Shown here: positions 29,750 through 62,520 of the stretch, one piece after another
Position numbering within the stretch: position 1 is the stretch's first letter
Layout: each line of letters starts with the position of its first letter
Source: Opitutales bacterium
Lineage (GTDB): Bacteria > Verrucomicrobiota > Verrucomicrobiia > Opitutales > PNEW01
Direction of reading: 5' to 3'
DNA length: 64,000 nucleotides
Assembly (NCBI GenBank): GCA_965197745.1
Contig: CBDANS010000007.1
Coordinates: 1,440,001 to 1,504,000 of the forward strand
Position numbers and translations under genes: made by a program
Notes under the pieces: model-generated
Seen by the model: only the letters and a program-made list of their open reading frames with translations
Database searches by the model: none
Told to the model about the DNA's origin: nothing

Positions 29750-31963
29750 ATGCACTTTAGAAATCGTGTTTCTTATTTAATATTGTTAAATGCATTAATC
29801 TTACCGCTTCTTCTCTCAGCTCTTCCTCAAGACCTTGAGGTATTCACGGATTTTGAGGATATCAGCGGGGAAGGTGAATTTTTCATCGGCGAAGAGCCCA
29901 ACCGGATCAAGTTAGTCGGATTCACGGTAGAAACGCTGGAAGATCCGGCGCTCTTACACTCCGGAACAAAGGCGATAACCCTCGGACCTGGTCAGGAGGG
30001 GGTAATTGTATCGGAAAGAGGGATTCAACTGCTCCAATTCTATGCGGCCGAAAATACGGGAGCCGGCAGAATCGAGCCCAGAGGAAATATCGATTTAGAA
30101 CATTTCATTACTTTAATTTTAGCGGAAAATGGTATTGTCGAGGGTTTACCGACCAATATCAGTCCCAGTGCCAATCCCCCATTACAAAGCTTTGTCGCAG
30201 ACAGTGATATGTTCCTCGACTCAACCGATTTTGACTTTCTCGACGGCATTAAAGAATTAAAGATCAAAAATGTTTCAGGAAAATTCTCCCTTGACGATCT
30301 GGGTTTCACGATAACGGAAAGACCGTCTAATAACACCGTATTCACTTCTTTTGAGGAATACAGTATTGGTGCAGGAATAACGGAACCCATTGTTTTTGGG
30401 GAATCACCCAATAGTGCTACTTTTGAAGGTGGCTCGATTTTATCTATAGGAAATAGTCCGACGCGATCGGGAACTCAATCCTATGGGATTGCTAACGGAG
30501 AAAGCTTCACGGTAACTTTTGAAACTCCGGCATTTGAGATCGATGTTTTCGCCGCAACCATTATTTTGACTGGCACTACTGACCCTGATGGTTCAATTGA
30601 AGTTTACGATACTAATGATAACCTTCTTGCTGTCTTTACGGATTTAGAAAGTGAGGGGAGTCTTCCTTCTTTATTCAAACCCCGTCAAACTACAATCAAT
30701 ACGGTAGAGTTGGGAGCTCCAGGTGGCATTGACAGACTGCTTGTTAAGGACAATCCCAATGTAAATATAGCAAGAAGCGCAACAGTCTTCGATGATTTCG
30801 GTTTTACTCCCATTGGCGCACCGGGCACAGGTTCCGAGGGTCCTCCACCCGTTGATGCTCCATCCATAACCACCCAGCCCGCGAGCCAAGAAGTGCAGTC
30901 CGGCGCTTCAGCGAGCTTGTCTGTAACCGCCAGCGGCGATGATCTTACTTATCAGTGGTACACAGGCAATAGTGGTGACACATCGAATCCCGTCGCCGGA
31001 GCTACCGGCAGCATTCTAGACACCGGTGCGCTCACCGCGAGCACAAACTTCTGGGTTCAGGTAACTAACGCCGGAGGCAGCGCTGACAGCGACACCGCGG
31101 TGATTACCGTAGCCGCTCCTTCTGTCCCCCTCGTTCTCGACGGCTCAGGCGATATCGCCGGAGAAAACATTCAGCACCCGAATGGAAACGTCTTTGACCA
31201 GGTCTTGCTCACCGGGGAAAGCGTTCGGCTCCAGGCAAAACCCAATCAGATCACCCGCGTTTCCTTCATGGACGAAACCGAAGACATTGTACAGGTGGAG
31301 TTCTCAGGCGCAGGTACCTTTACTGTAACCCTGGACCCGGCCACCTTCCTGCCCCCGGCCATACCCCCGCGCTATAACCAGGCAGTAGAGTACGTGACGG
31401 GCAAACCCAGCGTGGTTATCGATGGAGCGGACTCCAGTACCTTCTTCAGTATCTTCACGGTGGGAAGAATTAACGCGGTGAACCAGGCGCTGTTCCCCGA
31501 GGGACAGGTCTATGACGCCCAGGCGGACGTGACCCTGGTGGAAGTGATCAACTCCACGGGAATGGGAGGGATGCAGTTATCGAACACGGTGTTCAGTGGA
31601 AGCACGGGCAAGGTGGGCGTGGATGCCAGAGGGGTACCGATCGGGGTACGCTTAACCGTAGGCGACATCGATGCTGATGGCGATGCAGTGCCGCATCTCT
31701 TATTCGGATCGGGATCGTTCACCGTGGCGGCGAACAATACCGGGTTGCGGATCACCGGAGGCGACCTGGCGCAGACGAATGGAGCCTCAATCGTCGTCGC
31801 GGAGAGCGGATCGACGACGACCGGCTTTGAAGAGGCCTTTATCTCCCAGAACAATTTCAAGTCCGACAACACGCCTCAACCGACACAGTCCGTAAACGCG
31901 ACTTTTGTTAATGAAGATGGTGAGGTGATTGCGGTGACCGTGAACGAGGAAACGATTGAGTGA
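29750..31963 (+). CDS. Secreted Ig-domain protein, paralog P1 of an expanded family
   Basis: Signal peptide ending ALPQ; two tandem N-terminal domains; Ig-like APSITTQP...YQWY; conserved C-domain HPNGNVFDQVLLTG...TIE. Confidence 0.88.
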   Translation: MHFRNRVSYLILLNALILPLLLSALPQDLEVFTDFEDISGEGEFFIGEEPNRIKLVGFTVETLEDPALLHSGTKAITLGPGQEGVIVSERGIQLLQFYAAENTGAGRIEPRGNIDLEHFITLILAENGIVEGLPTNISPSANPPLQSFVADSDMFLDSTDFDFLDGIKELKIKNVSGKFSLDDLGFTITERPSNNTVFTSFEEYSIGAGITEPIVFGESPNSATFEGGSILSIGNSPTRSGTQSYGIANGESFTVTFETPAFEIDVFAATIILTGTTDPDGSIEVYDTNDNLLAVFTDLESEGSLPSLFKPRQTTINTVELGAPGGIDRLLVKDNPNVNIARSATVFDDFGFTPIGAPGTGSEGPPPVDAPSITTQPASQEVQSGASASLSVTASGDDLTYQWYTGNSGDTSNPVAGATGSILDTGALTASTNFWVQVTNAGGSADSDTAVITVAAPSVPLVLDGSGDIAGENIQHPNGNVFDQVLLTGESVRLQAKPNQITRVSFMDETEDIVQVEFSGAGTFTVTLDPATFLPPAIPPRYNQAVEYVTGKPSVVIDGADSSTFFSIFTVGRINAVNQALFPEGQVYDAQADVTLVEVINSTGMGGMQLSNTVFSGSTGKVGVDARGVPIGVRLTVGDIDADGDAVPHLLFGSGSFTVAANNTGLRITGGDLAQTNGASIVVAESGSTTTGFEEAFISQNNFKSDNTPQPTQSVNATFVNEDGEVIAVTVNEETIE

Positions 31964-32170
31964 ATCGATTGCGGAATGCGGAATGCGGATTGACGGATGT
32001 CGGGCTTTGCCCTCGGTACGGATTGTATATTGAAGGGATTATGATGCGGTGTAGATGACGCATGTTGGAGGGCCACGCGTTGTCGTGGCCATGTAATACC
32101 TTACAATGTCATTGCGAGGAGCGTAACGATGACAAAGGGAGTCAATCGGCAGTTGAAAATTGTATCCATC

Positions 32171-34987
32171 ATGACCTATTATAAAAAAATGAATGTAATT
32201 CGAATAACACTTGGCATTATAATAACGCTGTTCCTGATTGTCAGCCCACTATACTCAATGGGGAAAGCGAAAAAAGATGCCGAGGAAATGGAAGAGCAAG
32301 AAGTTTGGGTGCAAAAGGGCTTTGAGGAGTTTTCTAAAGGACAATTCGACAATGCAGGGAGCAATCTCTATGTGAATGCCCACGGTGTCATTGAGATGAT
32401 TAATAATCTCGATGTGAATAGTGACGGATACGTAGACCTGGTCCTTGCAAATGATCACGATAGGATTGAACGCGGTCCCACTTGGGCATATTCAACTGAT
32501 CAAGGTCCAGGAGAGAACTGGAAACGTCATGAAATGTCCGCGGATAGCGGATGGATGAGCCGAGTTATCGACGTGGACGGAGATGGACATAACGACTTGG
32601 TGACCGTGAACTCCCAGAACGGAGTCTCTTCGGAATTAGATTCGTATATTTATTGGGGAGGACCTGAGGGTCCTGAAGCGAGCAGAACCGACCTTCCGAC
32701 GATTGGGGCATTTGATGTCACGCCACTTGATATAAACAGTGATGGAAAACTCGACTTACTCTTCCCCTCCGCCTGGATAGACGGTCACAATCCAGCAATA
32801 CCACGATTAGTTCACGTCTACATTCAAGGAGAAAACCGCAAGTTTAAAGATGAAGGGGCGAGATATGGGATGATCGCAACGGGTGCCTTAGGCATCGCAA
32901 CCGGGAATTTGAACAACGATGAATATGAGGATATTGTTCTGGCCAGTTACAGGGTAGGTCAAAGTGACTTAAATACGGAGTCCAAAATTTTCTGGGGAAC
33001 CGCGGATGGGGTAAATACCGAAGAGCCTTTCACTTTACCTACTTACGGAGCGCGGCAGGTTATACTGGCTGACCTTAACCAGGACGGGAGCAAAGACTTG
33101 ACCTTCTGTGGTAGTGCTCAAGTTCGCATCTATTGGAATGAAGGCGGTAAGATTGATCGTGAGAACCCCGTCATTATTGGAGCGAAAGGTCAATCTGGAG
33201 AATTTAGCAGCTCAGTTATTCGCGCTGAAATCGCGGATGTAGATACTGATGGTATCCCTGACCTGCTTATTGCCACTAGCGATGGGGTGCAGATCCGCTC
33301 GGGAGACAACGTGGAAGAAATGAAAACATTAATTGATGTAAAAAACTCTCGATGGGTAACGGCTGCTGATCTCGATGGAGATAGTTTACCGGAATTAATC
33401 ATCAGTAAGAACTTTGAAGAAAATGAATTCGATATTCAATCACCTATCTACTGGAATGGACCGGACGGGTATTCTGACGATAGGACGAGTTGGGTGCATA
33501 CGAAAGGAGTCGTGGGCAACACCGCTGGGGACCTGGATGGTGACGGGAAGCCGGAAGTGATCTTCAATAACGTCCTCGATGGGCATGTGCATAGTGTACC
33601 CTCTTATGTGTATCTGGGAAATGAAAATGCAGAATACAGTGAAGAGAATCGACTCGAATTTCAAACTGCACATAGTTCGATTGCTCTCGTTGCCGATTTG
33701 AATAGCGATGGTTATCCCGAAGTTATTTTTGCGATTTCCAAGGGATTTCGCATTTACAGCGGTGGAGCGAATGGCCCAATAATGAATGAATATATTGATT
33801 TAAATACCGACTTTGACTGTGGTGACCTGAAGGCGGTCGATTTTAATCGAGATGGTTATCTTGATATTCTTGCGGTTGCCGTCGGTGGCAGTCTTGGCGA
33901 GAAGGACCCGGATAGTACTTCTGCTATATTTTATGGAGGCTCCAGCGGATTTACACCTGATAGAAGCGATTCTGATTCATTATACAATAGAGGTGATAAG
34001 TGTGCCGTGGGAGATGTTAATAACGACGGCTATATTGATATCCTATTTCATGATAAGCGAAACTTCATACGCATCTATCTCGGTAACGCTGACGGTTTTT
34101 CTCCGGACCGGAAATGGGAAGTGCCCTGTCATGGTCTGGAAGATTCAGCAGGTGTAAATGTTGCGGATATCAACAGTGACGGGTGGCTGGATATCATTGT
34201 CGGCATCCTCGGCTCCCGCAGACGTCATAAGGACACATTGCGAATTCATTTTGGAAGTCCTGAAGGTTATCAGGAAGATAACATTCAGGAATTGATGTCT
34301 GGATACAGCTCAGTATTTACAGGTATCGCAGATTACAATAATGACGGAAATCTCGATATCCTGGTAACCGCCTATGCTGACCCAATATCGAGAACACCCC
34401 CGGTACAATTGTTTTATGGGGATGGTAATCAGATTGATTTTGATCATCCGGTCAATCTTCCCGGCTATGCCGCTGGTGCGGTGACCCAAGCTGATTTAAA
34501 TAGCGACGGCTGGATAGATATCGCCCTCGCCTGTCATCGCAACGATATTGGACACCAGGTTGATTCATTGATTTACTGGAATAGTCCCAATGGATTTGAC
34601 AAGAATATAGTATCCCGTTTCCCCGGGCTCGGCCCCCACGGGATGACAAGCTATGATCGGGGAAACGCTTTCACCCGGAAGCCCGAAGAGAATTATACTT
34701 CCCCACCCTTCGAGCTGGGGAATCAAATAGCGCGCCGACTCCATTGGGATAGTGAAGAGACGGATCTTCTGAAAATAAAATTCCAGCTCCGATGGAGCGA
34801 ATCGGAAACAGGTCTTGAAGACGCAGCCTGGACAGGTCCGGAAGGGGAATCTTCATATTATGAATCCTCCGGTGAAACGATTGAGGGAATACCTGATGAT
34901 TCCCAGTGGTTACAATACAAAGCAACCCTCATTTCACCTTATGGGTGTGGCTCCCCTAAACTTAAAGAAATCAGGATCGACCTCTAA
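32171..34987 (+). CDS. Secreted FG-GAP/VCBS-repeat protein
   Basis: Signal peptide; more than 10 DxN/DxDGxxD repeats followed by IYWG/N. Confidence 0.9.
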   Translation: MTYYKKMNVIRITLGIIITLFLIVSPLYSMGKAKKDAEEMEEQEVWVQKGFEEFSKGQFDNAGSNLYVNAHGVIEMINNLDVNSDGYVDLVLANDHDRIERGPTWAYSTDQGPGENWKRHEMSADSGWMSRVIDVDGDGHNDLVTVNSQNGVSSELDSYIYWGGPEGPEASRTDLPTIGAFDVTPLDINSDGKLDLLFPSAWIDGHNPAIPRLVHVYIQGENRKFKDEGARYGMIATGALGIATGNLNNDEYEDIVLASYRVGQSDLNTESKIFWGTADGVNTEEPFTLPTYGARQVILADLNQDGSKDLTFCGSAQVRIYWNEGGKIDRENPVIIGAKGQSGEFSSSVIRAEIADVDTDGIPDLLIATSDGVQIRSGDNVEEMKTLIDVKNSRWVTAADLDGDSLPELIISKNFEENEFDIQSPIYWNGPDGYSDDRTSWVHTKGVVGNTAGDLDGDGKPEVIFNNVLDGHVHSVPSYVYLGNENAEYSEENRLEFQTAHSSIALVADLNSDGYPEVIFAISKGFRIYSGGANGPIMNEYIDLNTDFDCGDLKAVDFNRDGYLDILAVAVGGSLGEKDPDSTSAIFYGGSSGFTPDRSDSDSLYNRGDKCAVGDVNNDGYIDILFHDKRNFIRIYLGNADGFSPDRKWEVPCHGLEDSAGVNVADINSDGWLDIIVGILGSRRRHKDTLRIHFGSPEGYQEDNIQELMSGYSSVFTGIADYNNDGNLDILVTAYADPISRTPPVQLFYGDGNQIDFDHPVNLPGYAAGAVTQADLNSDGWIDIALACHRNDIGHQVDSLIYWNSPNGFDKNIVSRFPGLGPHGMTSYDRGNAFTRKPEENYTSPPFELGNQIARRLHWDSEETDLLKIKFQLRWSESETGLEDAAWTGPEGESSYYESSGETIEGIPDDSQWLQYKATLISPYGCGSPKLKEIRIDL

Positions 34988-34990
34988 TGA

Positions 34991-35305
34991 ATACGGCTGA
35001 CTGTAGGCGATATCGACGCTGATGGTGATGCAGTACCGCACCTTTTATTTGGATCGGAATCGTTCACCGTACCGGCGAACAATACCGGGTTGCGGATTAC
35101 GGGGGGAGACTTGGTGCAGACAAACGGAACTTCGATCGTAGTTGCGGAGAGTGGATCGACAACGCCCGGATTTGAGATATTGACGACACAGAACAATTTC
35201 AAATCCGACAACACTCCCCAGCCCACGCGGAGCATTGATGCAACGTTCGCCAATGAAGATGGTGATGAAATAATCGTCGACACTGAAGAGCTGACGATCG
35301 AGTAA
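34991..35305 (+). pseudogene. Orphan 3' fragment (104 codons plus stop) of the family's conserved C-terminal domain
   Basis: IRLTVGDIDADGDAVPHLLFG...EELTIE*, starting 3 bp after the FG-GAP stop with no start codon. Confidence 0.88.
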
Positions 35306-35680
35306 TCCTTCAAGGGGTATTACATTAGCATACCTCACCCAAACAAAACGCCCTCACGACTCTACATCGCTCGAGAATACTACTCTATGTTTGTGTTACT
35401 ATCGAATCCCCTCGGGTAAAAAACCCCTCCGCCGCATGTGGTTTTATGAATTGTGAAAATTGCAAGAGGCGTTGCTTCGTGACCCCCGCCCCCCGTCTTA
35501 TTCATTGCAATAGTTTTTGGATTTTTGACGGTTTAAGAGTAGGGTAACTATAAAATGGATGCTTAGAGGAACATGATCAAAGCACCTAAAATAAGGTTTC
35601 AGGAAACTAAATGTGCACCAAAAACGCACCAGACAAAATAATTAAATTAATTTATAATTCCCTAAGTCTTTGCTTATCAA

Positions 35681-35727
35681 TGGTTGGCCCTGCTGGATTC
35701 GAACCAGCGACCAAGGGATTATGAGTC
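35681..35727 (-). other. 3' half of a CAT-anticodon tRNA (Ile2/Met type), att-like remnant
   Basis: Minus strand gactcataatcccttggtcgctggttcgaatccagcagggccaacca; no 5' half upstream. Confidence 0.8.
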
Positions 35728-36342
35728 TCAGCGAGTGATGAGAGTGTTTTTAGGTGTATCGGTGGATTTTTTGAATGGTCTGGTCGCAATAACGCGATTG
35801 CTATTCAGATCTTAAGTTAAAATTTATATCCCAAGCCAAGAATGACTCGCTGTTGCGTTTTATCCACACCGATCGGTAAATTGTTATCAAAATCAATTTT
35901 ATATCTTAGATTGGTAATTAAGCGATTGGATATCTGGGTTTCTAGCCTGGTTAAAAACTTAATGGTCAATGAATCGGTATCCTTAGGATTAATAGAAATA
36001 TCTGACTCCTGATATAAGGTTAATTGTTCGCTGATTGTGTAACGGATACACTGAAAAATATGACCAAGTAATTCCCAATCCTCTGTGATTGTCGGTATAT
36101 TCTGGAATCGGCCACCAAGGCCGGGGGTGGCTTCGACTGGGTGTTGTGGAGGAATAGGAAGGTCGCCGACGTCCGAAGGGCTTCGTTGCGAATCAAAACC
36201 CGATCAGCTTCCGAGCCAGCCGCGGGTGTCGAAGATGTATTTTTGCTCGTGGGTCAGTTCGACTGCGGGTAATCAATCCGCGTTGGTGAGTTCGGACGTT
36301 TTGGATTCATCGATTGTGGGATGGTCTGATGGTCAGCGATGA

Positions 36343-40172: not shown

Positions 40173-40338
40173 TTTTATATTTGAACCGGATCCAATTTCC
40201 ATTCTCATCGTCATTCGGTGACCTTAAAATCCCACACGCTCTGCCTTTATGTTTGGGGCAAGCTATCTATAGTTTAGTATTCTCGAGTGATGAGAGCGTT
40301 TTGATGGGCTGGGATATACTTAGATATCCCATGAAGGA

Positions 40339-40653
40339 TTACTCTATCGTCATCTCTTCCACAGTGACTGTGATATCATTTCTGTCCTCGTTGCTGAAGG
40401 TGACGACAATGCTCTGGGTCGGCTGAGGGGTATTGTCGGATTTAAAATTGTTCTGCGAAATCAATGTATCAAATCCACGTGTAGTCGTTCCACTTTCAGC
40501 TACCACAATCGAGGCACCGTTTGTCTGCGCAATGTCGCCTCCGGTAATCCGCAACCCGGTATTGTTCGCCGGTACGGTGAACGATCCTGATCCAAATAAA
40601 AGGTGCGGTACTGCATCACCATCAGCGTCGATATCGCCTACAGTCAGCCGTAT
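40339..40653 (-). pseudogene. Second orphan 3' fragment of the conserved C-terminal domain
   Basis: Same breakpoint (TAATGAATACGGCTGACT) as the 34991 fragment; ends EEMTIE*. Confidence 0.88.
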
Positions 40654-40656
40654 TCA

Positions 40657-41696: not shown

Positions 41697-43277
41697 TCAT
41701 CTTGTATGCGGATAGAAATTCATCGTAGATAGGTAACAAGTACACCAAATCTGCTTTACACATAAACAGAAAAACTCGTAATAAATGAAATGGACTTCCG
41801 TGTTGTGTTGTAACCAGAATGTAGCGGGTATGGCGATGGCAGTACCTATAACCCATCCAGGATAGGTAACAATCATGTTTACACATAAACAGAAAAACTC
41901 GTAATAAATGAAATGGACTTCCGTGTTGTGTTGTAACCAGAATGTAGCGGGTATGGCGATGGCAGTACCTATAACCCATCCCAGAAAATTTGCACGCTGA
42001 GTGAAAATACCAAGTAGAAAAAGGCCAAGAATTGGTCCCCCAAAAAGGCTCATGAGAGTGCCGGCAGCTTTTATAATTTCTCCTATTGTTGTAACATAAC
42101 AGGCAACAATTACCGCTAATGCTCCCAAGACAAAAGTAAGAATACGCGCTAACTGTACGTCTTGATGTTCAGTCCTGGCTTTGCGGCGCAATGGTTTAAC
42201 AAAATCGTTAACGATGACCGTAGAGACTGAATTTATCCCTGAATCCATACTTGACATCGCGGCCGCAAAGATGGCTGTGATGAGGAGTCCGGATACCCCG
42301 TCAGGAAGATTCTGCATAATGTAAAAAGGCAGCACTCTATCTCCTTTCATTTCCAGGGAGGCTTGCTCGGGAAAATGGTGATAAAAAGCGAACATGCCGA
42401 TTCCGATAAATATTAAAAGGCCGACTATGATAAAATCGATGAATGAGTTAACTACCGTAGCCTTTACCATCCCGCTGAATTTCTTTGTCGCTAAAAGCCT
42501 TTGCACCGTAACCTGGTCAATCCCGTAGTTGAGAAAAAACCCAATGAAAGTAGTGAAAGCAACGGCCGTAGCACTCATCTCAAAAATGCTGATTTTCCAG
42601 GTGAATACATTCAAATGGTTTGTTTCGCTGGCGATAGCAATAATACCAGACCACCCATCGGGAACGGAATTAAGTAAACTTACAAACACCCAAAATGCCC
42701 CGACCACAAGGATGATGAATTGAATAGCATCAGTCCACAGAACAGCGGACAGGCCACCGAGAACCGTATAGGTGGTGGCGAGAACGCCCATGAGAAGAAT
42801 TGCGAGATAAAGGTCAACCCCGGTCGCTACCGATAAGGCAAGAGAGGGGGAGTAGATGACAATGCCAAGCCAGGATAAACGCAGCAGCACAAACAATCCC
42901 GATACGGCATAGCGACCGGGTCTCCCGTAGCGAAACCCTATGTATTCGTAAGTAGTGGTTACGCGGAGCCGTCGATAAAAAGGATAAAAAAGATAGATAA
43001 AAAAGGGAGCGGCCAGAACACTAACAATCCCAATAGCAATTTGAGAAATATTTTCTCGATAAACGAGCCCCGGCATTCCGATAAAGATAGAGGCGCTCGT
43101 AAGCGAGGCGAACATACTCATGGCAACGATAATCCATGGCATTTTTCGACCCGCGAGGAAGTAGTCTTCTGTCGTCTTCTGCTTTCCAGCCAGCCATAAC
43201 CCGATACTAAACATTACAGCCAGATAAACAGCACATATAGTGTAATTAAAAACGCTGAATGAGGGTAATTCTTCCAT
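41697..43277 (-). CDS. Sodium:solute symporter (SSS family), rearranged C-terminus
   Basis: DYFLAGR, YT.LGGL.AV.WTD..Q, DQ..VQR, AAAMSSMDSGINS; last TM segment duplicated. Confidence 0.9.
   Translation of the reverse strand: MEELPSFSVFNYTICAVYLAVMFSIGLWLAGKQKTTEDYFLAGRKMPWIIVAMSMFASLTSASIFIGMPGLVYRENISQIAIGIVSVLAAPFFIYLFYPFYRRLRVTTTYEYIGFRYGRPGRYAVSGLFVLLRLSWLGIVIYSPSLALSVATGVDLYLAILLMGVLATTYTVLGGLSAVLWTDAIQFIILVVGAFWVFVSLLNSVPDGWSGIIAIASETNHLNVFTWKISIFEMSATAVAFTTFIGFFLNYGIDQVTVQRLLATKKFSGMVKATVVNSFIDFIIVGLLIFIGIGMFAFYHHFPEQASLEMKGDRVLPFYIMQNLPDGVSGLLITAIFAAAMSSMDSGINSVSTVIVNDFVKPLRRKARTEHQDVQLARILTFVLGALAVIVACYVTTIGEIIKAAGTLMSLFGGPILGLFLLGIFTQRANFLGWVIGTAIAIPATFWLQHNTEVHFIYYEFFCLCVNMIVTYPGWVIGTAIAIPATFWLQHNTEVHFIYYEFFCLCVKQIWCTCYLSTMNFYPHTR
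41755..41981. repeat. 104 bp direct duplication, period 123 bp, inside the SSS 3' end
   Basis: 41755-41858 repeats at 41878-41981. Confidence 0.92.
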
Positions 43278-43310
43278 CTATTTATTTAGATTAAAATTAC
43301 CCGTTTTCGC

Positions 43311-43652
43311 GTGGAGTGACCCCAAAAAATCGTATCATTTACAGAGAGAGGTTATCGGGATAAACGGATAACCTCAATGAAAAGAAAAATATACACAACA
43401 GAACAGATAATTGCAATACTGCGACAAACCGATAGCGGTAAGACCGTGCAGGAAGTCTGCCGTGGGAACAACCTAAGTGAACAGACTTTTTATCGCTGGC
43501 GTAAAAAGTATGGTAACCTGGAGCTGGCCGATGCAAAGCGATTTAAAGAGCTGGAAAAAGAAAATACCGAGCTAAAGAAACTGCTCGCTGAGCAAATGCT
43601 CAAGAAGCCTTTGTTATGTAATTCAACTCTCCAATATATAACTAACTATTAA
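43311..43652 (+). mobile_element. IS3-family remnant (left end plus orfA only)
   Basis: MKRKIYTTEQII..L...SEQTFYRWRKKYG...ELEKEN.ELKKLLAE; no orfB follows. Confidence 0.8.
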
Positions 43653-51112: not shown

Positions 51113-51183
51113 AACAACTTATTATTTATAAGAGTTTATAAAGCATAATTGTTTTGAAATATACTAAAAGACAACATATCCAT

Positions 51184-51307
51184 CGATATCCAAGGATAAC
51201 GCTGACTGAAATTAATTACTTTTCCCCTGATAATTTAGGGGGCGGGGGGGGTATAAAAATACACATCCCATTCAATCGATATTCCATTAATCTGTATGCA
51301 GCGGAGG
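51184..51307 (+). repeat. ~125 bp island-associated repeat, copy upstream of P2
   Basis: Close match to 20734-20860. Confidence 0.85.
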
Positions 51308-51702
51308 GGGGGTTCCCCACACAGATTAATTAGATATTCTAAAGATCAAGCCTTATTAAATCTTCGACGCTTTCGTTTTTGTTTAGTAGTGGGAAGCATC
51401 GGTGTTAATAAATTCTCATAAAGCTGGAAGAGATATTCGATGCGCTGACGTTCGCTTGTGAATGGGTTACGTCGATAACAGGCGGTCGGTTGCACGGTCA
51501 AGATTGTGGTGAGCCCTAAGAAGACCGGAAAACCAGAAAGCCAGACATCCAGAAGGCTGGTAATCTAGAAGGCCAGAGAGCCTGAAAGTCTGCCTGCCCT
51601 GAGCTTAGTCGAAGGGAACCTTCTTCCCCTTTTTACCTTTTGACTTTTTGACTTTTTGACTCTAATCAATCCGCAATCGACAATCTGAAATCTGAAATCG
51701 AT

Positions 51703-52554
51703 ATGTCTCAGCGTTTTGAATCCAACTACCCACTCGATCCCGAACAGATTAAGGAATGGGTGGACACCTTTAACCGCCAGGGGGTTCTTTTCCTGGAAAA
51801 TGTTCTGACCGAGGATCATGTAGCCCAGTTGAAAGCTGATCTCGACTGGTCAATTGACAATATCACTTCAGTCGACGACGACCCCTATGGCAAACTCAGC
51901 AGTCGAAATTCAGTAAAAAATATCTGCCTCTGCCATCGAATGTTTGAACATAGTCCGGCCAACCTTAACCTCTTCGACCTCGAGCCTATTGTCAGCTTTG
52001 CTGAAGCCTTGGTTGCTACCAACAGCCATGTCATTCACAACAACTCATGCCATGTCATTAACAACAACTCATTTGTCACATATCCGGGTGGTGGTATCAC
52101 AAGCTGGCACCAGGATGATCCTCCACATATGATCGTTACCGATGGAGAACCGCCAACGAATATTCAGCTGCCTGTTCTCGCTTTTACCTGCAATTACTAT
52201 TTAACAGATGTCACTGAAGTTGAACAAGGCGGGACTGAAGTCATTCCCGGTTCTCACCTCTTTGGCGCTGATGCGCGCAAGGCTGATTTCAATGGAGAAT
52301 GGAAGGACAAAATTCACTATAACTTGGGTAAAGCCGGAAGCGTGATCATGTTCAACAACCAGGTCTGGCACCGTGGAGGCCCCAATCGCACCAATAGAAA
52401 ACGTTATATTACCCTAATTACATACGCCCGCCGCTTTATCGGACACAAATATTTTCCCTTCATGAATTACACTATGCCCGAGCATGTCTACAAGGACGCG
52501 AATCCTCGGCTCAAACGCCTGCTCGGCTTCCTCGAACACGGCGCTTACGGGTAG
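51703..52554 (+). CDS. Phytanoyl-CoA dioxygenase (PhyH)-family Fe(II)/2OG enzyme
   Basis: F..QGVL..ENVL, WHQD, GGT.VIPGSH, F...VWHRGG.N...R. Confidence 0.92.
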   Translation: MSQRFESNYPLDPEQIKEWVDTFNRQGVLFLENVLTEDHVAQLKADLDWSIDNITSVDDDPYGKLSSRNSVKNICLCHRMFEHSPANLNLFDLEPIVSFAEALVATNSHVIHNNSCHVINNNSFVTYPGGGITSWHQDDPPHMIVTDGEPPTNIQLPVLAFTCNYYLTDVTEVEQGGTEVIPGSHLFGADARKADFNGEWKDKIHYNLGKAGSVIMFNNQVWHRGGPNRTNRKRYITLITYARRFIGHKYFPFMNYTMPEHVYKDANPRLKRLLGFLEHGAYG

Positions 52555-52866
52555 GGAGAGAAAGCCGGAAGACCGGAAAGCCAGAGCGTTGGAGTGAAAA
52601 AGGATAACTGAGAGGACAAAGAAAATATTTTATTACGCATAAAAGTAGCATATTCCACCTATACACTAGCATAAAAGAATAGTGGTGGAGCGGGCTGACC
52701 CAGCACGCTTTTTCAATGATGACTATCTCAAACGCGCTAGGGACACGATACGATTATGCTCATCGCAGGACGCGTTCCACCATCTATTAAATAGTAATTC
52801 TTATATTCCTCGATCGTGCCTTCAACCTTTTGACATTTTGACCTTTTGACATTTTGACTAAACACC

Positions 52867-55800
52867 GTGAAACGTGCTTTCAAATATTGCGGGTTAATAT
52901 TTCTTACGGGGTGTTGTTTTTTAGCATTTTTGTATTTCTGGAGTGATGTCTTAAAGCCGGAACTGGAAGAGGAACCCATTCGCTATAGCCCGGAAAAAAT
53001 TGATTACATCGAAAAGTCAAGAGACGTTAGTTTCACTGAAGACGACCTTTTCAAAATACAGCAGGATGTCGATTACCGCGGGGGTGAATCCGGCACATGG
53101 TATCCTAAATCCGAATCACCCATCCTCAGCGAACTGGTAGAGGAGGGCAATCTTCCACCGGTGGCCGAACGTGTGGGATCCGAGCCGGTAGTGCTTAAAG
53201 GTGTGGACAGTATTGGTAGATACGGCGGCACCTGGTTTCAAGTGGTAGGATCACCACACCAGGCAGAATACGTCGGTAGCTTCTTTGCCGGATCTTCTCT
53301 TGTTCGCTGGTCGCCGCTCGGTTACCCGATCGTCCCTCATATCGCTAAGCGTTGGGATTCCAGTCCCGATAAGAGGGCATGGACATTTTACCTGCGAAGA
53401 GGCATGAAGTGGTCTGACGGCCACCCTTTTACTGCCGATGATATCCTGTACTGGTGGGAAAAAGAAATACCGCTTAATATCCCTGGGGTTGCTACTGCCG
53501 AATGGATGGATATAGGCGGTAAGACAGGGGAGATAACTAAAATCGATGATCACACCGTAAAGTTCGTTTTCCCTCACCCCTATGGAGCATTTTTAGAAGC
53601 CTTGGCTAAATTTAATGATATTTGCTCGCCTCAACATTACCTGGAAATATACCACCCGGTATTTGGTGATGACGCCCTTATCGAAGCGAACATGGAAGAA
53701 AGGAGGCTACCTTCGCGTAGGAGCCTATATGCTTCATTGAAACTCTGGAACAACCCAGAACACCCGAGGATTTGGCCCTGGCTTTATCGCACTTTTAAAG
53801 CGAATCCACCCCAGGTGTTTGTCCGCAATCCCTTCTACTGGGCAGTTGATACCGAGGGCAATCAGCTCCCCTATGTGGACCAATTATTTACCGAGGCAAA
53901 AACCTATAAGCTTATACCAATAACTGCGGCCAGTGGAGCCGTCACCTTTAAAATTTTTGGCAGTATGGATCTCTATTATACCCTGCTCATGTCACAACGC
54001 GAAATAAACAATTACGAAGTGTATCACTGGTTTCCAGCTTCACGTTCACGCTACCTCATCCATCCAAATCTAAATTTATTGGTGGACCCTGACGATCCGG
54101 TTACCCAAATGAAACATGATCTCCTCAACAGCAAACGGTTCCGCCAGGCACTTTCCCTCGCCATCAATCGACGCCAAATAATCAAAAATGTATACAATGG
54201 AGTGGGAGAACCCGCACAGTTATCACCCGGGAGGGAGTCATATTTCCACCATGAAAAACTTTATAAAAGTTTCACCGAATATTCACCCGACAAGGCTAAC
54301 GCCTTACTCGACGAGCTCGGTCTAACCCGGAGGGATTCCAAGGGATACCGTACATTTGTGGACGGTACGCGTATGGTCTGGTATTATACCATTAAACAGG
54401 GAGAAGACGAAGGACCGACGGAGCTCATCATCGAAGACTGGAGCCGCATTGGCATTCGCGCCGTCCAGCGTCAGCCGCCATCGGCCCTCTTTAGAGTACA
54501 ACTAAATTCGCGCAAAGTCGAATTTTCCATTTATCCTGGGAACGCAGAATACATTCCTGTTATAGGGGGTAAAAAAATTGCTGGAATATCAGCATATCAA
54601 GCCTATGGCTATCAGAATTGGTACAAGCGAGGGGGACTTTACGGAAATCCTGAAGCCACAGAGTTAGGCGGCATTGAACCACCGATAGATCACCCCATGC
54701 GACAGACAATGAAGCTGATCGATGAATCATACAGTGCAATTAATCGTGAAGATCAACGGTTAATTTTCAATAAGCTTTTCGACATCGCCGCAGAGAATGT
54801 CTGGTCAATCAATGTAACCCCTTCACCACCGTTCCCGGTAGTGGTCAAAAACGATTTTAAAAACGTTCCATACAATGCCGCATATAGTGGATTCTTCCTT
54901 ACGCCATCTAACGCGGGAATGGAAACCTACTACTTTGAGAAGCCTTATAATTCGCCTGGAACCCTTGCGCAAATGAAAAAAGAATTGATAGAAATCACCC
55001 CTGCTTCTTACGGATCCAGCCAGGATGATCCAACATCAAGCAGTAATGAACGCATGGCATGGCTTATAAAAAAACTGTTTTTAGGTGTTGCCGTTTGCGG
55101 AATAATATTGATCGGGATACGGCATCCTTATATCGGCAGGCGACTACTCATCATGGGTCCGACTCTTCTCATTATCTCGATGATCTCTTTTGTTATCATT
55201 CAGCTGCCACCGGGAAATTATATCGATACAAAAATTATAGAATTACAGTTAAAAGGTAGTCAGGTAGACATCGATGAGATTGAAAAGCTGCGGGAGATCT
55301 TTCATCTCGATAAGTCTATTGCCGAACGTTATTTACTTTGGCTAGGTCTTAACTGGTTTACTTCCTTTGAAAAAAAAGACCAGGGTTTATTACAGGGTCA
55401 CTTGGGTTTATCCATGGAAAACCAGAGCACGGTCAATGCAGTGGTGGGCGATCGTATCCTTCTAACTTTGCTCATTTCGATGGGCACTATACTTTTTACC
55501 TGGGCAGTAGCCTTACCCATCGGAATATATTCAGCAGTTCGCCAATATACCTTGGGTGATTATGTATTTACATTGATCGGTTTCATTGGAATGAGTATTC
55601 CCAGTTTTCTCCTCGCCTTGATCCTTCTTTATTGGAGCAGTAAGTACCTGGGCATTAATATTTCGGGTCTATTTTCACCTGAATATTCAATCCAACCAGA
55701 ATGGACTAAAGGTAAAATAGTTGACCTCTTGCAGCACATCTGGGTACCCGTTGTCGTCCTCGGCGCCACGGGAACCGCGAGTATGATCCGGGTAATGCGA

Positions 55801-57411: not shown

Positions 57412-59625
57412 TCATTCTATTGTCACTTCTTCAGTTGTCACCGCGATATCATCCCCATCCTCGTTGGAGAACGTAGCGTCAATGCTCAGGGTCGGTTGAG
57501 GCGTTTCGTCAGACTTGAAATTGTTCTGTGTGATCAGAGTCTCAAACCCCGGTGTTGTCGATCCACTCTCCGCCACGACGATCGAAGCGCCATTCGTCTG
57601 CAACAGGTCTCCACCCGTGATGCGCAAACCGGGGTTGCCCGCCGGTACCGTGAAGGACCCGTCTCCGAACAGCAGGTGCGGCACCGCATCGCCGTCGGCG
57701 TCGATGTCGCCCACCGTTAAGCGTACCGCGATCGGCACTCCGCGCGCATCGAAGCCGACCTTGCCCGTGCTTCCACTGAACACGGCATTCGATAACTGTG
57801 CCCCTCCCAGTCCCGTGGAGTTGACTACTTCCACGAGTGCCACGTCGGCCTGGGCGTCATAGACCTGTCCTTCGGGGAACAGCGCCTGGTTAAAGGCGTT
57901 GATCCTGCCCACCGTGAAGATGCTGAAGAAGGTATTGGCGTCGGCTCCGTCGATGACCACGCTCGGCTTTCCCGTTACGTACTCCACGGCCTGGTTGTAG
58001 CGTGGTGGGACAGCCGGGGGCAGGAAGGTGGCCGGGTCCAGGGTTACGGTAAAGGTACCGTTACCTGAGAACTCTACCTGCACAATGTCCTCGTTTTCGT
58101 CCATGAAGGAAACACGGGTGATCTGTCCCGGTTTGGCCTGGAGTTGGACGGACTCTCCGGTGAGTAGTATCTGGTCGAAGACGTTGCCGTTGGCATGCTG
58201 AATGTCTTCACCCGCGATATCCCCCGAGCCGCCTAGGATGAGAAGCACCGGTGGTGCGGCAACGGTAATGACGGCCGTATCGCTGTTGGCGCTCCCTCCG
58301 GCGTTCGTTACCTGCACCCAGAAATTCGTGCTCGCGGTGAGTGCACCCGTGGTCAAGGTATTCGACGTAGCCCCGGCGATGGGATTAGCAGTGTTGCCGC
58401 TATTGCCTTCATACCACTGGTAAGTGAGATCGTCGCCGCTGGCTTCAACTGACAAAACGACAGCGGTCCCCGACTGCACTTCCTGGTTCGTGGGTTGGGT
58501 AGTGATAGGGGGAGCATCCGCGGGTGGCGGTGCTGAGGTATCAGTGCCCGGTGCGCCAATAGGAGTAAAACCGAAATCATCGAAGACTGTTGCGCTTCTC
58601 GCTATATTTACATTGGGATTGTCCTTAACAATAATTCTGTCAATGCCGCCTGGAGCTCCCAACTCTACAGTATTGATTGTAGTTTGACGGGGTTTAAGTA
58701 AAGCATCAAGACCCCCAGCACTTTCCAAGTCCGAAATGGTAGCAAGAAGGTTATCATTAGTATCGTAAACTTCGATTGTTCCGTCCGGGTCAGTAGTGCC
58801 GGTCAAAACAATGGCTGCGGCGAAAACATCGATTTCAAATGCCGGAGTTTCAAAGGTGACCGTGAAGCTTTCTCCGTTAGAAATCCCATAGGATTGAAGT
58901 CCCGATCGCGTTGGATTATTTGCGGCAGATAAAATCGAGCCCCCATCAAAAGTAGCACTAATAGGTGATTCCCCAACAATAATGGGTGCCGTTATTCCTG
59001 CACCCACACTAAAATCCTCAAAAGTAGTGAATACGGTGTTATTGGACGGTCTTTTCGTTATCGTGAAACCCAGATCGTCAAGGGAGAATTTTCCTGAAAC
59101 ATTTTTGATTTTTAATTCTTTAATGCCGTCGAGAAAGTCAAAATCGGTTGAGTCGAGGAACATATCACTGTCTGAAACAAAGCTTTGTAATGGGGGATTG
59201 GCACTGGGGCTGATATTGGTCGGTAAACCTTCGACAATACCATTTTCCGCTATAACTATTATAATGAATAGTTCTGAATCGGCCTTATTTCCTCTGGGCT
59301 CGATTCTGCCGGCTCCCGTATTCTCGGCCGCATAGAATTGGATTTCATCAATTCCTCTTTCCGATACAATTACCCCCTCCTGACCAGGTCCGAGGGTTAT
59401 CGCCTTTGTTCCGGAGTGTAAGAGCGCCGGATCTTCCAGAGTTTCCACCGTGAATCCGACTAACTTGATCCTATTGGGTTCTTCCCCAATGAAAAATTCA
59501 CCTTCCCCACTTATGTCCTCGAAATCCGTGAATACCTCAAGTTCTTGTGGAAGGGCCGACAGGCGTGCCGGTGAATAGAGTAAGAGAATCAGAATCGAAA
59601 TTATTTTTATAGTTTTATTATTCAT
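57412..59625 (-). CDS. Secreted Ig-domain protein, paralog P3
   Basis: Same architecture; N-domains close to P1, C-domain close to P4. Confidence 0.9.
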   Translation of the reverse strand: MNNKTIKIISILILLLYSPARLSALPQELEVFTDFEDISGEGEFFIGEEPNRIKLVGFTVETLEDPALLHSGTKAITLGPGQEGVIVSERGIDEIQFYAAENTGAGRIEPRGNKADSELFIIIVIAENGIVEGLPTNISPSANPPLQSFVSDSDMFLDSTDFDFLDGIKELKIKNVSGKFSLDDLGFTITKRPSNNTVFTTFEDFSVGAGITAPIIVGESPISATFDGGSILSAANNPTRSGLQSYGISNGESFTVTFETPAFEIDVFAAAIVLTGTTDPDGTIEVYDTNDNLLATISDLESAGGLDALLKPRQTTINTVELGAPGGIDRIIVKDNPNVNIARSATVFDDFGFTPIGAPGTDTSAPPPADAPPITTQPTNQEVQSGTAVVLSVEASGDDLTYQWYEGNSGNTANPIAGATSNTLTTGALTASTNFWVQVTNAGGSANSDTAVITVAAPPVLLILGGSGDIAGEDIQHANGNVFDQILLTGESVQLQAKPGQITRVSFMDENEDIVQVEFSGNGTFTVTLDPATFLPPAVPPRYNQAVEYVTGKPSVVIDGADANTFFSIFTVGRINAFNQALFPEGQVYDAQADVALVEVVNSTGLGGAQLSNAVFSGSTGKVGFDARGVPIAVRLTVGDIDADGDAVPHLLFGDGSFTVPAGNPGLRITGGDLLQTNGASIVVAESGSTTPGFETLITQNNFKSDETPQPTLSIDATFSNEDGDDIAVTTEEVTIE

Positions 59626-59717: not shown

Positions 59718-59918
59718 GGTTCGATAAAGCCTCACTTCTCCGCCATTTCAATTGTCGATTGCGGATATTCGATTGTGGATTGAGAAAACCGCAAAAGGCA
59801 CAAAAGGGATATTCAAGACGATGGATGTCGGAAACAAGATAAACCATGTATTTCCCGCGAGGGACAATCGAAAATCCGAATTCGAAAATCGAAAATTATC
59901 CCCCCCCTCTCCGCTATT
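59718..59918 (+). other. Two degenerate tRNA-Ser 3'-end (att-like) remnants
   Basis: ggttcga...ttctccgccatt (59718-59747) and atcc..cctctccgctatt (59898-59918), both followed by tcaattgtcgatt. Confidence 0.6.
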
Positions 59919-60288
59919 TCAATTGTCGATTGGCGATTTTCGATTGCGGATTGAATAAAAAGTCGACGGTTGTAGGTTATTTCCTATTGTCATTGCGAGG
60001 AGCAACGCGACGCGGCAATCCAGTAAAATGTCTGTTGCGTAATGTAATTCCCGTGTTGTTGGGAATTACTCTCAACTAATCGATTTCCTTTAAATGAAGA
60101 GACGAATCCTCATTGGAAAGACCAGAGCAGAGATTTTTATTCGTAAGCACTATGACTATGTGCCTAGATTGCCGCAGTCGGTTGCACCTCCTTCGCAATG
60201 ACAAAAAGGGAAGGCGCTTATGCGCGTGTTATGTGTTAAGTTCCAAGTGTTAAGTAAATTAACCTAAAACCTGACACTGATCGATAGC

Positions 60289-62520
60289 TCATTCAATCGT
60301 TACCTCATCAACCTCGACGGTAATCTCATCCCCATCTTCGTTGGCAAAAGTGGCATCAATGCTCTGTGTCGGTTGAGGAGTGTTGTCGGACTTGAAGTTG
60401 TTCTGCGTAATCAGGGTCTCAAACCCGGTCGTTGTTGAACCACTCTCCGCGACCACGACCGCTGCGCCGTTGGTCTGCAAGAGGTCTCCTCCGGTGATCC
60501 GCATCCCCGGGTTGCCCGCCGGTACCGTGAAGGACCCGTCTCCGAACAGCAGGTGCGGCACCGCATCGCCATCGGCGTCGATGTCGCCCACCGTTAACCG
60601 TACCGCGATCGGCACGCCGCGCGCATCGAAACCCACCTTACCCGTGCTTCCACTGAACACGGCATTCGATAACTGCACCCCTCCCAGTCCCGTGGAGTTG
60701 ACTACTTCCACGAGCGTCACGTCGGCCTGGGCGTCATAGACCTGTCCTTCGGGGAACAGTGCCTGGTTAAAGGCGTTGATCCTTCCCACCGTGAAAATGC
60801 TGAAGAAGGTATTGGCGTCAGCTCCATCGATGACCACGCTCGGTTTGCCCGTCACATATTCGACGGCCTGGTTGTAGCGTGGGGGGACGGCCGGAGGCAG
60901 GAAAGTGGCCGGGTCGAGGGATACGGTAAAGGTACCGTTACCTGAGAACTCTACCTGTACAATGTCTTCGTTTTCGTCCATGAACGAGACGCGGGTGATC
61001 TGATTCGGTCTTGCCTGGAGTTGAATGGACTCTCCGGTGAGTAATATCTGATCGAAGACATTGCCGTTGGCGTGCTGAATGTTTTCACCGGCGATGTCAC
61101 CCGAGCCGTCGAGGACCAAGGGCACGGAGGGGGCTGCTACGGTGATGACCGCGGTATTACTGTCAGCGCTTCCACCAGCGTTAGTTATCTGTGCCCAGTA
61201 GTTAGTGCTCGCAGTGAGAGCACCGGTAGTTAAAGTGCCACTGGTCGCACCGGCGATGGGACTGGCGGTGTCGCCGCTGTTGCCGGTATACCACTGGTAA
61301 GTGAGATCATCACCGCTGGCGGCAACAGTGAGGACTACCGCGGTGCCGGATGGGACCTCCTGGCTCGCGGGTTGGGTCGTGATCGCGGGAGCATCAGCGG
61401 GAGGTGGTCCTTCAGTACTTGTTCCCGGAGCGCCGATCGGCGTAAAACCAAAGTCGTCTATCCCCGTATGGCTCAATACATCATTGTTCAGTGTAGGATC
61501 GTCCTTAAAAACAAGCCTGCTGATTCCACCCGGCGCTCCTAATTCCACCGCGTTGACGGTAAAAAAATTGGGTTTAAATTGCGGTTGCACAGCCGACTCA
61601 AAATTAGTGAAGGTCCCGAGCAGGTTATCATTAGTATCGTAGACTTCAAATGAGCCATCGGGATCCTGCAATTGTACTCTAACCGTACTCTGTGCGTAAA
61701 ATTTTACTTCATAAGCCGGAGTTTCAAAGGTGACGGTGAATTCTTCACCATTTCTAATCGCATAACCTTGTGTTTGCGAATGAATTAAATCACATGCGCA
61801 TGAAAATTGTACTACAATCTGGCCCCCATCAAGGATGGCTGTATTGGGTGATGTCCCAACGACAATCGGTTCCAATATACCATCACCCACACCAAATTCA
61901 TCAAATCGGGTATAGACGCTACTATTGGAAGGTTTGTTCGTGAGTGTGTAGCCAAGATCATCGATGGAAAACTTACCTGAAACATTGAGGATCTTCACTT
62001 CTTTTATCCCTTCAAGGAATTCCAGGTCAGTGTCATCAAGAAAATCGCCGCTGTCAGCGATAAAGCTTTGCAATGGGGGGTTGGCGCCAAGGTTGATGTT
62101 GGCCGGCAGTCCTTCAACCTCACCATTATTTCCTATCACGGTTACTGTTGCAAAACTATCAGAGCCACCGAATTCAATTGGATTGACTAAACCTCTGATC
62201 TCGATTTTGCCACCCCCTGTTGATTCAGCCGCGTAAAATTCGATGGTAGCGATCCCACGGCTGCTTACGATTCGCCCCTCCTGGCCGGGTCCAAGGGTTA
62301 AAGCTTTCGATCCCGAGTGCAATAGTGCCGGATCTTCTAATGTCTCTATCGTAAAGCCAATAAACTGAATATCATTCGGTGGATCTCCGAGTCTAAAATC
62401 TCCCGAACCTTCGGCATCTTCAAAATCTAAAAAATTTTCCTGGTCTTGAGGAAGAGCTCGGAGAAGAATCGGTAAAAACAGTGAAATTAGCGATACGATA
62501 ACAATATTTTTTAAACGCAT
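60289..62520 (-). CDS. Secreted Ig-domain protein, paralog P4
   Basis: Same architecture with its own loop sequences. Confidence 0.9.
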   Translation of the reverse strand: MRLKNIVIVSLISLFLPILLRALPQDQENFLDFEDAEGSGDFRLGDPPNDIQFIGFTIETLEDPALLHSGSKALTLGPGQEGRIVSSRGIATIEFYAAESTGGGKIEIRGLVNPIEFGGSDSFATVTVIGNNGEVEGLPANINLGANPPLQSFIADSGDFLDDTDLEFLEGIKEVKILNVSGKFSIDDLGYTLTNKPSNSSVYTRFDEFGVGDGILEPIVVGTSPNTAILDGGQIVVQFSCACDLIHSQTQGYAIRNGEEFTVTFETPAYEVKFYAQSTVRVQLQDPDGSFEVYDTNDNLLGTFTNFESAVQPQFKPNFFTVNAVELGAPGGISRLVFKDDPTLNNDVLSHTGIDDFGFTPIGAPGTSTEGPPPADAPAITTQPASQEVPSGTAVVLTVAASGDDLTYQWYTGNSGDTASPIAGATSGTLTTGALTASTNYWAQITNAGGSADSNTAVITVAAPSVPLVLDGSGDIAGENIQHANGNVFDQILLTGESIQLQARPNQITRVSFMDENEDIVQVEFSGNGTFTVSLDPATFLPPAVPPRYNQAVEYVTGKPSVVIDGADANTFFSIFTVGRINAFNQALFPEGQVYDAQADVTLVEVVNSTGLGGVQLSNAVFSGSTGKVGFDARGVPIAVRLTVGDIDADGDAVPHLLFGDGSFTVPAGNPGMRITGGDLLQTNGAAVVVAESGSTTTGFETLITQNNFKSDNTPQPTQSIDATFANEDGDEITVEVDEVTIE

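Follow-up and report, generated by a model that had tools for sequence, protein, structure and literature searches.

A domain shared by a mosaic family of exported proteins also makes up the N-terminal part of Opitutales S-layer-like proteins

The window, a stretch of 64,000 nucleotides of DNA from an Opitutales bacterium, contains four full-length paralogs, P1-P4, where an earlier note had placed them (Table 1). All four display the architecture that the note had described, in which a signal-like peptide is followed by two N-terminal domains (N1 and N2), a proline-rich linker, an Ig_7 domain (profile E 1e-10 to 6e-8) and a C-domain, and every loop motif that it quoted is present in the sequence. 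Ig_7 is the only Pfam match in P1-P4, no NCBIfam model scored above cut-off, and a PDB sequence search with a family protein matched the Ig part alone. P2 is counted from a GTG that aligns with the ATG of its sister leaders. The second of two truncated C-domains belongs to a copy of 34670-35388 (85% identity), and this copy is joined to a 5' fragment of prfB. We also considered excision at the 64-nt direct repeats that flank P2; the observed joint carries letters of a third repeat copy at 20795 and is therefore no evidence of P2 excision.

Table 1. Family genes and features in the window
Feature	Position	Strand	Details
P1, full paralog	29750-31963	+	737 aa; signal, N1 ~29822-30316, N2 30317-30814, linker, Ig_7 30857-31111, C-domain 31127-31960
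P2, full paralog	48791-51073	-	760 aa counted from GTG 51073; N1 51001-50498, N2 50497-49940, Ig 49888-49634, C-domain 49627-48794
P3, full paralog	57412-59625	-	737 aa; head 59553-58561 (predicted fold: two CBM-like jelly rolls), C-domain 58242-57415
P4, full paralog	60289-62520	-	743 aa
Truncated C-domain	34991-35302	+	last 104 codons; directly 3' of the stop of the FG-GAP gene 32129-34987
Second truncated C-domain	40342-40653	-	104-codon 3' fragment
N2/linker junction	P3 58515-58560; P1 ~30833; P2 ~49921; P4 ~61416	- (P3)	main head/tail ancestry switch
Variable loop V1	P3 59251-59292; P1 30083-30121; P2 50690-50740; P4 62143-62193	- (P3)	
V3 core	P3 58909-58929; P1 30443-30463; P2 50294-50350; P4 61783-61812	- (P3)	

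In marine Opitutales bacteria, each genome encodes ~50 exported proteins of this family. The window genome holds 42 intact copies, 40 of which have their own start and a hydrophobic signal-like stretch, and 97 open reading frames bearing the C-domain; the family makes up ~4.5% of this genome. More widely, the C-domain occurs in 786 representative proteins, with up to ~100 genes per genome, and we found 13 domain-bearing genomes among 301 Opitutales. The note's proposal that the copies spread through tRNA islands did not hold up: with tRNA relics left out, 9 of 83 genes lie within 10 kb of a tRNA, against 13.7 expected by chance.

The 276-amino-acid C-domain is predicted to form a compact, all-beta, beta-helix-like fold. 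The top structural matches are parallel beta-helices without exception, many of them polysaccharide-binding, with a best Z of 6.8 (rmsd 4.4 over 174), a weak match in a range (Z below 8) that may mean merely a common arrangement. Foldseek returned nothing at E<=0.001, and RsaA is absent among the best 50 VIA structural matches. Across the 42 paralogs, the protein identity of the domain is 0.89 at a pS of 0.55. It occurs N-terminally, C-terminally, internally or in three copies, and is fused to a wide range of unrelated secreted heads (FG-GAP, RCC1, trypsin-like, subtilase, CAP, cyclophilin, GH26 and NHL). Neither the SLH (PF00395) nor the CWB2 (PF04122) profile matched in the proteins scanned.

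The same unnamed domain forms the N-terminal part of S-layer-like proteins in Opitutales. In both P0096 and P0189 (Oter_3963 of Opitutus terrae), it fills residues ~27-285; residues 258-1068 of P0096 match RsaA of Caulobacter crescentus (PDB 5N8P/6P5T), whose lattice region is C-terminal, at E 2e-41, and P0189 matches RsaA at E 3e-23. In some proteins, including Oter_3963, the domain directly precedes the RsaA-like lattice domain and takes the slot of the O-antigen-binding RsaA-NTD. RsaA-NTD is alpha-helical (PMC6978808), whereas the model of the domain is all-beta. The link to Opitutaceae proteins, which the earlier note had suggested, is supported.

Among the 120 matches listed, the domain is N-terminal in 95, 87 of them behind a leader, and the tail resembles that of P0096 in 51, a count open to low-complexity matches. 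Of the 13 domain-bearing genomes, 8 have leader-type genes, and in three of these a single one accompanies 39, 17 and 2 other matches (G255, G137 and G116, respectively). These proteins differ from RsaA in their Planc_extracel-type leader and their M50/HlyD/TolC locus: in the flanking DNA examined, exporter genes of the HlyD/OEP/M50 type lie near the leader-type gene in 7 of 8 genomes. A Wzt/TagH-like ATPase is adjacent at 4 of 8 loci (E 1e-46 to 1e-57, below family cut-offs), and glycosyltransferases are nearby in most. Many leader-type tails, among them those of this family in G001 and G003, match no solved structure, so that we infer their S-layer status: the non-RsaA tails (alignment A4) and two single leader-type proteins have no PDB lattice homolog beyond RTX repeats. 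The window genome and G002 have no leader-type S-layer-like gene at the intact syntenic locus. The window genome also has no lattice-tail match, P3 has no RsaA match at E<=1, and the closest Wzt-like match lies elsewhere (C6:309-311 kb).

Because the domain forms the front end of the group's S-layer proteins, it probably acts as a cell-surface anchor of a new type, analogous in function to SLH, CWB2 and RsaA-NTD, that would bind a surface glycan (O-antigen-like, with Wzt-type export). As the domain is all-beta and RsaA-NTD helical, this role is argued from position and gene neighborhood, not homology. The S-layer link lends new support to the anchor idea of the earlier note. In the mechanism that we propose, P1-P4, which have no lattice domain of the RsaA kind, would exit by Sec and then a secretin route. 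Export of the S-layer proteins would instead use their LExxExRxLLA leader and the M50/HlyD/TolC exporter encoded next to them, and a single surface glycan would serve as docking site for both groups.

Such sharing of an anchor has precedents. In the Clostridioides difficile CWB2 system (PMC5842191), SlpA and up to 28 cell-wall-protein paralogues are bound to PSII. There, as here, one module is found both on the S-layer protein and on dozens of other, unrelated surface proteins, at N-terminal, C-terminal or central positions. A glycan synthesis/export locus adjoins the S-layer gene in C. difficile; the Wzt-like gene at 4 of 8 loci would be a candidate counterpart here. The Opitutales family differs in its diderm setting, in having a single 276-aa all-beta domain rather than three toprim-fold repeats, without sequence similarity to them, and in the expansion of one head type to ~50 copies. 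S-layer and associated proteins with SLH likewise combine a conserved anchor with a variable assembly or functional part (PMC12175726), but SLH itself differs in consisting of three motifs of ~55 aa that attach to peptidoglycan-linked polymers. The main text of that review and of the preprint 10.1101/2025.04.02.646754 contains no occurrence of "Verrucomicrob" or "Planctomyc", and a search of the open literature found no paper on the family or on an Opitutales S-layer.

Could the C-domain instead be a signal for secretion or sorting at the outer membrane, read by a dedicated machine in the manner of a TPS domain or T9SS CTD? Its extreme conservation on many cargoes, its mostly terminal position and its beta-helix-like fold, with a faint likeness to TPS domains (Z 3.6 for HxuA and 3.9 for hemolysin A), would suit such a signal, but we consider it unlikely. 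No Pfam or NCBIfam secretion domain matched, a TPS profile included, the domain can sit at either end, in the interior or in tandem, it follows two different kinds of N-terminal export leader, and the leader-type genes already adjoin their own exporter. A T9SS cargo CTD was rejected on the domain's length, its occurrence at any position and the missing profile match. It is quite unlikely that the C-domain self-associates or docks on the S-layer lattice to build a mixed protein coat. The domain is part of S-layer-like proteins, its near-invariance within a genome fits a common interface, and one clade of the domain tree (100/99) holds leader-type and appended copies together; however, the lattice role in RsaA-like proteins is already taken by their C-terminal part, and the window genome and G002 have 60-97 copies without a lattice gene, which speaks against docking though not against self-assembly. 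Binding of an external ligand such as a host or particle polysaccharide, with the proteins acting as bridging adhesins or released scavengers, would fit the beta-helix neighbors (tailspikes, lyases and adhesins) and the patchy distribution over genomes. We regard it as very unlikely, given the domain's cell-proximal slot in RsaA-like proteins and its linkage to genes for envelope glycans.

Turning from the putative anchor to the heads, N1 and N2 are predicted to form tandem CBM-like jelly rolls (AlphaFold pLDDT 92, with dips to 79, 71 and 73 at V1, V4 and V6). Fold matches reach Z 9.2-10.9 and a Foldseek E of 2e-9 to 4XUP, with the best CBM at Z 10.9 and DUF4465 vitamin-B12 binders close behind at 9.8-9.9. 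The jelly roll is that of tandem CBM22 (4XUP), pectate-lyase and porphyran CBMs (8X8H, 8XMZ) and DUF4465/BtuJ (4JQR, 9HMU), but identity to these is 7-14%, the heads have no Pfam family, and no CBM sequence family matched despite the fold. The ESM Atlas returned unnamed clusters plus DUF4465 at 0.83, a lead only. The earlier picture of a variable, binding-type head on a common conserved domain is supported. Seven discrete loops vary (mean identity 0.25, versus 0.60 in the framework): V1 (8-25 aa) takes 41 distinct forms and V3 (15-40 aa) 40 in 42 genes.

The note had also read the relationships among P1-P4 as switching along the gene, and this mosaicism is real. Among 254 informative sites, neighboring sites share a pattern 183 times, versus 122 when permuted (0 of 10,000 permutations reached 183). 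The main breakpoint falls in alignment columns 398-410, at the N2/linker junction (P3 ~58539); 144 of 158 sites to its left group P1 with P3, versus 19 of 86 to its right. Nucleotide identity of the signal is 0.76 for P2-P3 (P1-P4 0.65, other pairs 0.45-0.52), and the C core of P4 is 94% identical to that of P3, its head being nearer to the P2 clade. P1 and P3 pair clearly in N1 and N2 (0.93 and 0.89), P2 and P4 at just 0.70 and 0.65. The linker AAPSVPLVLDGSGDIAGEN, by which the note paired P1 with P4 (0.79 vs 0.72), is weak evidence for exchange because it is the common type, present in 12 of 42 genes.

Family-wide, head and C trees agree in only 1 of 39 splits, N1 and N2 trees in 18 of 39. 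The PHI test reaches significance in the C-domain (0/500) but not in the frameworks of the head (p 0.20 and 0.08). The two-domain head is inherited as a block, and the Ig/C tail is scrambled by conversion tracts with dispersed ends, mostly 94-99% identical; leader/signal cassettes are likewise swapped. Heads move whole with their upstream flank, whereas the conserved tail DNA freely recombines between ~100 copies, also from genus to genus. The traded units, between gene copies and between genera, are whole heads, not single loops. Heads crossing genera on transferred segments show a pS of 0.07-0.15, versus 0.63-0.72 for core genes, and many head types persist across genera.

The earlier reading of recombination as the source of a CDR-like loop repertoire is not supported, and a dedicated diversification system (loop conversion from donor copies, or a DGR) is largely refuted. 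Variable loops on a conserved framework and swapped leader/signal cassettes would suit such a system, as would codon models in which M2a is favored over M1a (LRT 21.9, p 2e-5; 2.9% of sites at omega 3.3) and 11 of 18 selected sites lie in loops (Fisher p 0.006). The per-site signal is weak: both sites with posterior >0.95 are framework sites, in a pattern resembling recombination, and the pooled dN/dS of the loops is 0.37 (CI 0.24-0.55). Divergent heads almost never have loops in common (0-12 of 5352 pairs per loop), loop dS is 0.149 versus 0.178 in the framework, and loop pS equals framework pS. A DGR was rejected, as there is no adenine bias (A takes part in 0.51 of the changes in loops and 0.55 of those in the framework), no loop excess of pS and no PF00078 reverse-transcriptase match in the 92%-complete genome. 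With tract ends dispersed and nearly every copy carrying its own start and hydrophobic stretch, such a system is most improbable; the loops evolve through substitution and indels. That the mosaics are assembly chimeras is hardly credible: ~100 similar repeats, several split family genes, a contig C5 end that duplicates 44485-55500 of the window at 99.755% with a frameshifted P2, and a head-tail junction spanned by none among the DNA-run contigs listed would allow it, but tracts are mostly not 100% identical, two independent assemblies show the same pattern, and one RNA-library contig from another run bridges the P2 junction (49614-50024, 2 differences).

Rather, homologous recombination of the ordinary kind in the tail would homogenize the anchor, re-pair heads with tails and aid the integration of incoming DNA; new specificities would arise slowly, via duplication and via substitution and indels in the loops, with episodic positive selection. 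Neisseria pilE/pilS and Borrelia vlsE are segmental gene-conversion systems, and Rhs/CDI proteins undergo core-tip reassortment; in all of these, as here, a conserved part serves as recombination substrate and a variable part is exchanged. Unlike pilE/pilS and vlsE, we saw no silent cassettes or single expression site, and the loops are not shuffled. As in Rhs/CDI tip swapping, a whole N-terminal unit, here a 330-aa binding head, is exchanged, but without a toxin/immunity gene.

The family is thus not a new diversity-generating machine; what is new is that its C-domain is the front module of Opitutales S-layer-like proteins. It is possible, though doubtful, that a uniform S-layer has been lost or become optional and that the anchor now displays a polymorphic coat of at least 50 lectin-like receptors, with the heads as a cross-genus pool and the anchor DNA as a universal landing site importing heads and flanking genes. 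Shared S-layer anchors are well known in Gram-positives; an all-beta diderm counterpart would, if true, be new and might find use as a display tag. The unnamed domain gains a specific role to test, as the anchor of a so far undescribed Verrucomicrobiota S-layer system with a cultured carrier in Opitutus terrae (going by the name given as the source of P0189), and the family in the window genome illustrates how conserved tails enable binding heads to move between genera.

The four full paralogs of the window (P1 to P4) and two 3′ fragments lie where the earlier note had placed them, and all of the loops it quoted are present in these genes. The mosaicism of P1-P4 is far above chance: over 254 informative sites, 183 neighbours display the same pattern where 122 are expected, a clustering that none of 10,000 permutations reached. 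The main ancestry switch falls at the junction of N2, the second head domain, and the linker. P1 and P3 have a common head (93% and 89% nucleotide identity in N1 and N2), P3 and P4 a common C core (94%), and in the signal region P2 groups with P3. One RNA-library contig bridges the head-tail junction of P2, and identical pieces of the window region occur in three runs from three studies, as fragmented contigs.

The source genome (G000; 4.45 Mb, 92% complete) contains 113 ORFs with a family domain, covering ~4.5% of its length; 42 are intact N1-N2-Ig-C genes, 40 of which have signal-like peptides by a crude check, and seven are N1-N2-C. C-domain sequence is present in 97 of the 113 and nearly whole in 82. 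The expansion recurs in G001, G002 and G003, the other three genomes of this bacterial family, and the C-domain is found in 13 of 301 Opitutales genomes and in 786 representatives of a 50%-identity library. The head was seen only in close relatives, with 75 matches among the 180-620-aa proteins searched.

Among the 42 intact genes, the N1 and N2 trees have 18 of 39 splits in common and the head and C trees one of 39, and third-position distances of head and C do not correlate. The PHI test is significant for C and Ig and not significant for the head frameworks of the same genes. Near-identity tracts, whose ends are dispersed, number 44: 31 lie in Ig/C and join genes 68-86% alike overall, 12 lie in heads and join already close pairs, and one crosses both. 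One gene pair is 99.8% identical at residues 24-575, and beyond that its pS is 0.40. With 64 sampled G001 and G002 genes added, the 5352 divergent-head pairs hold one shared head tract versus 360 tail tracts, the tails being held to a stricter score, and 183 of the 360 run between genomes; any single loop is common to only 0-12 of these pairs. From these tract and loop counts it follows that tails are mixed among copies and heads travel as intact units, so that the segmental recombination proposed earlier holds for the tails but not as a shuffling of loops. In all three genomes compared here (G000, G001 and G002), heads have a GC3 of 0.41 and Ig/C one of 0.61-0.66, as would fit tails that are prone to conversion or come from other sources. 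The promoter-plus-signal-peptide leaders preceding N1 in 59 G000 genes belong to a small number of families, each found on heads of distant clades; this leader is a third swappable module of the family.

The nearest relative of 31 of the 42 G000 heads lies in G001 or G002, at up to 98% identity. Head pS between genera falls to 0.067, 0.086 and 0.13; the two core genes compared, rpoB and gyrB, stand at 0.72 and 0.63. Because the accessory DNA flanking heads is 95-99% shared between genomes, heads are carried on multi-kb transferred segments. Two compared loci, L095 and L096, are alike in upstream flank (99.7%) and head and unlike in tail and downstream flank, as is one G000 pair, and this is the signature of tail crossovers.

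The head is modeled as two jelly-roll domains (pLDDT 92). Structurally it comes closest to CBMs (8X8H with Z 10.9 and rmsd 2.7 over 127; tandem CBM22 with a Foldseek E of 2e-9) and to DUF4465 proteins (Z 9.9). Mean pairwise identity is 0.25 in the seven loops, delimited by eye on the very alignment used for these values, 0.60 in the framework, 0.76 in Ig and 0.89 in C. The C-domain model is all-beta (pLDDT 97); a Foldseek search with it returned no match at E<=0.001, and its best 50 VIA rows are nearly all beta-helices (Z 4.9-6.8), a likeness that is suggestive only. Polar residues that are invariant in the C-domain include H16, D23, Q24, R43, D48, D52, E57, Y82, Q84, Y88, Q215 and N217. Selection on the loops is relaxed and on average still purifying: 26 disjoint close pairs give a dN/dS of 0.14 for the framework versus 0.37 for the loops. 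A site model on four clades favors (p 2e-5) a minor class, 2.9% of sites with omega 3.3, that falls preferentially in loops (11 of 18 sites); its posteriors are mostly low, and recombination can inflate such a signal. Loop changes are not biased toward adenine, and a search of the 92%-complete G000 turned up no reverse transcriptase.

Several further features were noted in the window. The prfB fragment is joined at a short microhomology, and its partner is an 85%-identical copy of an FG-GAP 3′ end with truncated C-domain. The fragment contains CTT TGA C, the prfB frameshift site. Positions 41858-43311 share 95% identity with a transporter gene located at 1367-1369 kb of G000 contig C7, near a second prfB-like copy (81%), and the whole looks like an imported, rearranged segment. 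The C5 duplicate, in which P2 is frameshifted, is either an alternative haplotype or assembly redundancy. The 64-150-nt repeat follows tRNA-Ser(GGA) and also forms direct repeats (94%) flanking P2, with further genomic copies. The tRNA relics are Ser-like upstream of P3 and include a CAT-anticodon piece 80% like a gene at C6:1087 kb. The 35-nt motif is repeated near family genes, in the window and elsewhere in G000.

Coordinates of features in the window and at compared loci
Feature	Location	Strand
prfB 5′ fragment (TIGR00020, E 7e-18) fused to FG-GAP 3′ end and truncated C-domain	window:40269-41360	-
Sodium:solute symporter gene; stretch of 104 nt exactly duplicated inside it, toward the 3′ end	window:41697-43277	
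Segment duplicated at 99.755% at right end of contig C5, from an IS3 copy	window:44485-55500	
64-150-nt repeat	window:20707-20858, 48689-48752, 51159-51307	
tRNA 3′-end relics	window:59730-59788, 59901-59959, 35626-35735	
Tyrosine-integrase-like gene and truncated 92% copy, an IS3 element after each	window:24784-26013, 26033-27343, 44031-45801	
35-nt motif (CGAGTGATGAGAG..TTTT)	window:22545-22579, 29568-29603, 40284-40324	
410-430-aa leader protein	L177:6388-7617, L200:6227-7522, L208:4552-5829, G000 C6:925570-926850	
Four leader-type paralogs (L176, L177)	G001:C1:582763-606627	

By analogy, the C-domain family would probably work like a shared S-layer anchor, with heads and tails reassorted by homologous recombination. 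In many relatives the C-domain is N-terminal and preceded by an LExxExRxLLA leader (Planc_extracel matches), a type that PMC8567305 presents as a putative signal for the export of surface proteins. In two such proteins, P0096 and P0189 (named Oter_3963, Opitutus terrae, by the source), the remainder matches the RsaA lattice region, and the C-domain therefore takes the place of RsaA-NTD, an O-antigen binder according to PMC6978808. Among the 120 proteins listed, the C-domain is N-terminal in 95, the leader is present in 87, and a P0096-like tail and end occur in 51 and 11. A layout in which one domain serves both the S-layer-like protein and many other proteins is also that of the C. difficile CWB2 system (PMC5842191) and of SLH proteins (PMC12175726), whose folds are unrelated to that of the C-domain. 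The tests run for membership in the SLH, CWB2, T9SS, DGR and segmental antigenic-variation families came out against it. Our literature search found no published account of the C-domain family or of an Opitutales S-layer; PMC5303756 and PMC10952558 proved uninformative.

Leader-type genes were found in eight of the 13 domain-bearing genomes, and these eight also carry the C-domain on other proteins (up to 39). HlyD/OEP/M50-type genes adjoin them in seven of the eight, the G003 contigs being too short, and a Wzt-like ATPase in four. No leader-type gene was seen in G134 or G279, and G183 has a 325-aa leader-like gene only. The leader-type tails in G001 and G003 match no solved structure. The four S-layer-like paralogs at one G001 locus, two of them frameshifted, lie with TPR-glycosyltransferase genes, possibly reflecting S-layer switching or decay. 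A conserved 410-430-aa protein of no known family, with an LE..E.R.LL leader, adjoins the exporter, also at loci that have lost the S-layer-like gene. Three secretin matches in G000 make a predicted second export step plausible for its family proteins.

That the C-domain docks on an S-layer lattice or associates with itself is an improbable reading. G000 and G002 have no leader-type gene: the equivalent of the G001 locus is preserved in G002 without such a gene, and in G000 it is occupied by a methyltransferase and by copies of IS3. This absence argues against docking on the lattice but not against self-assembly. The family may stand in for the lost S-layer in these two genomes.
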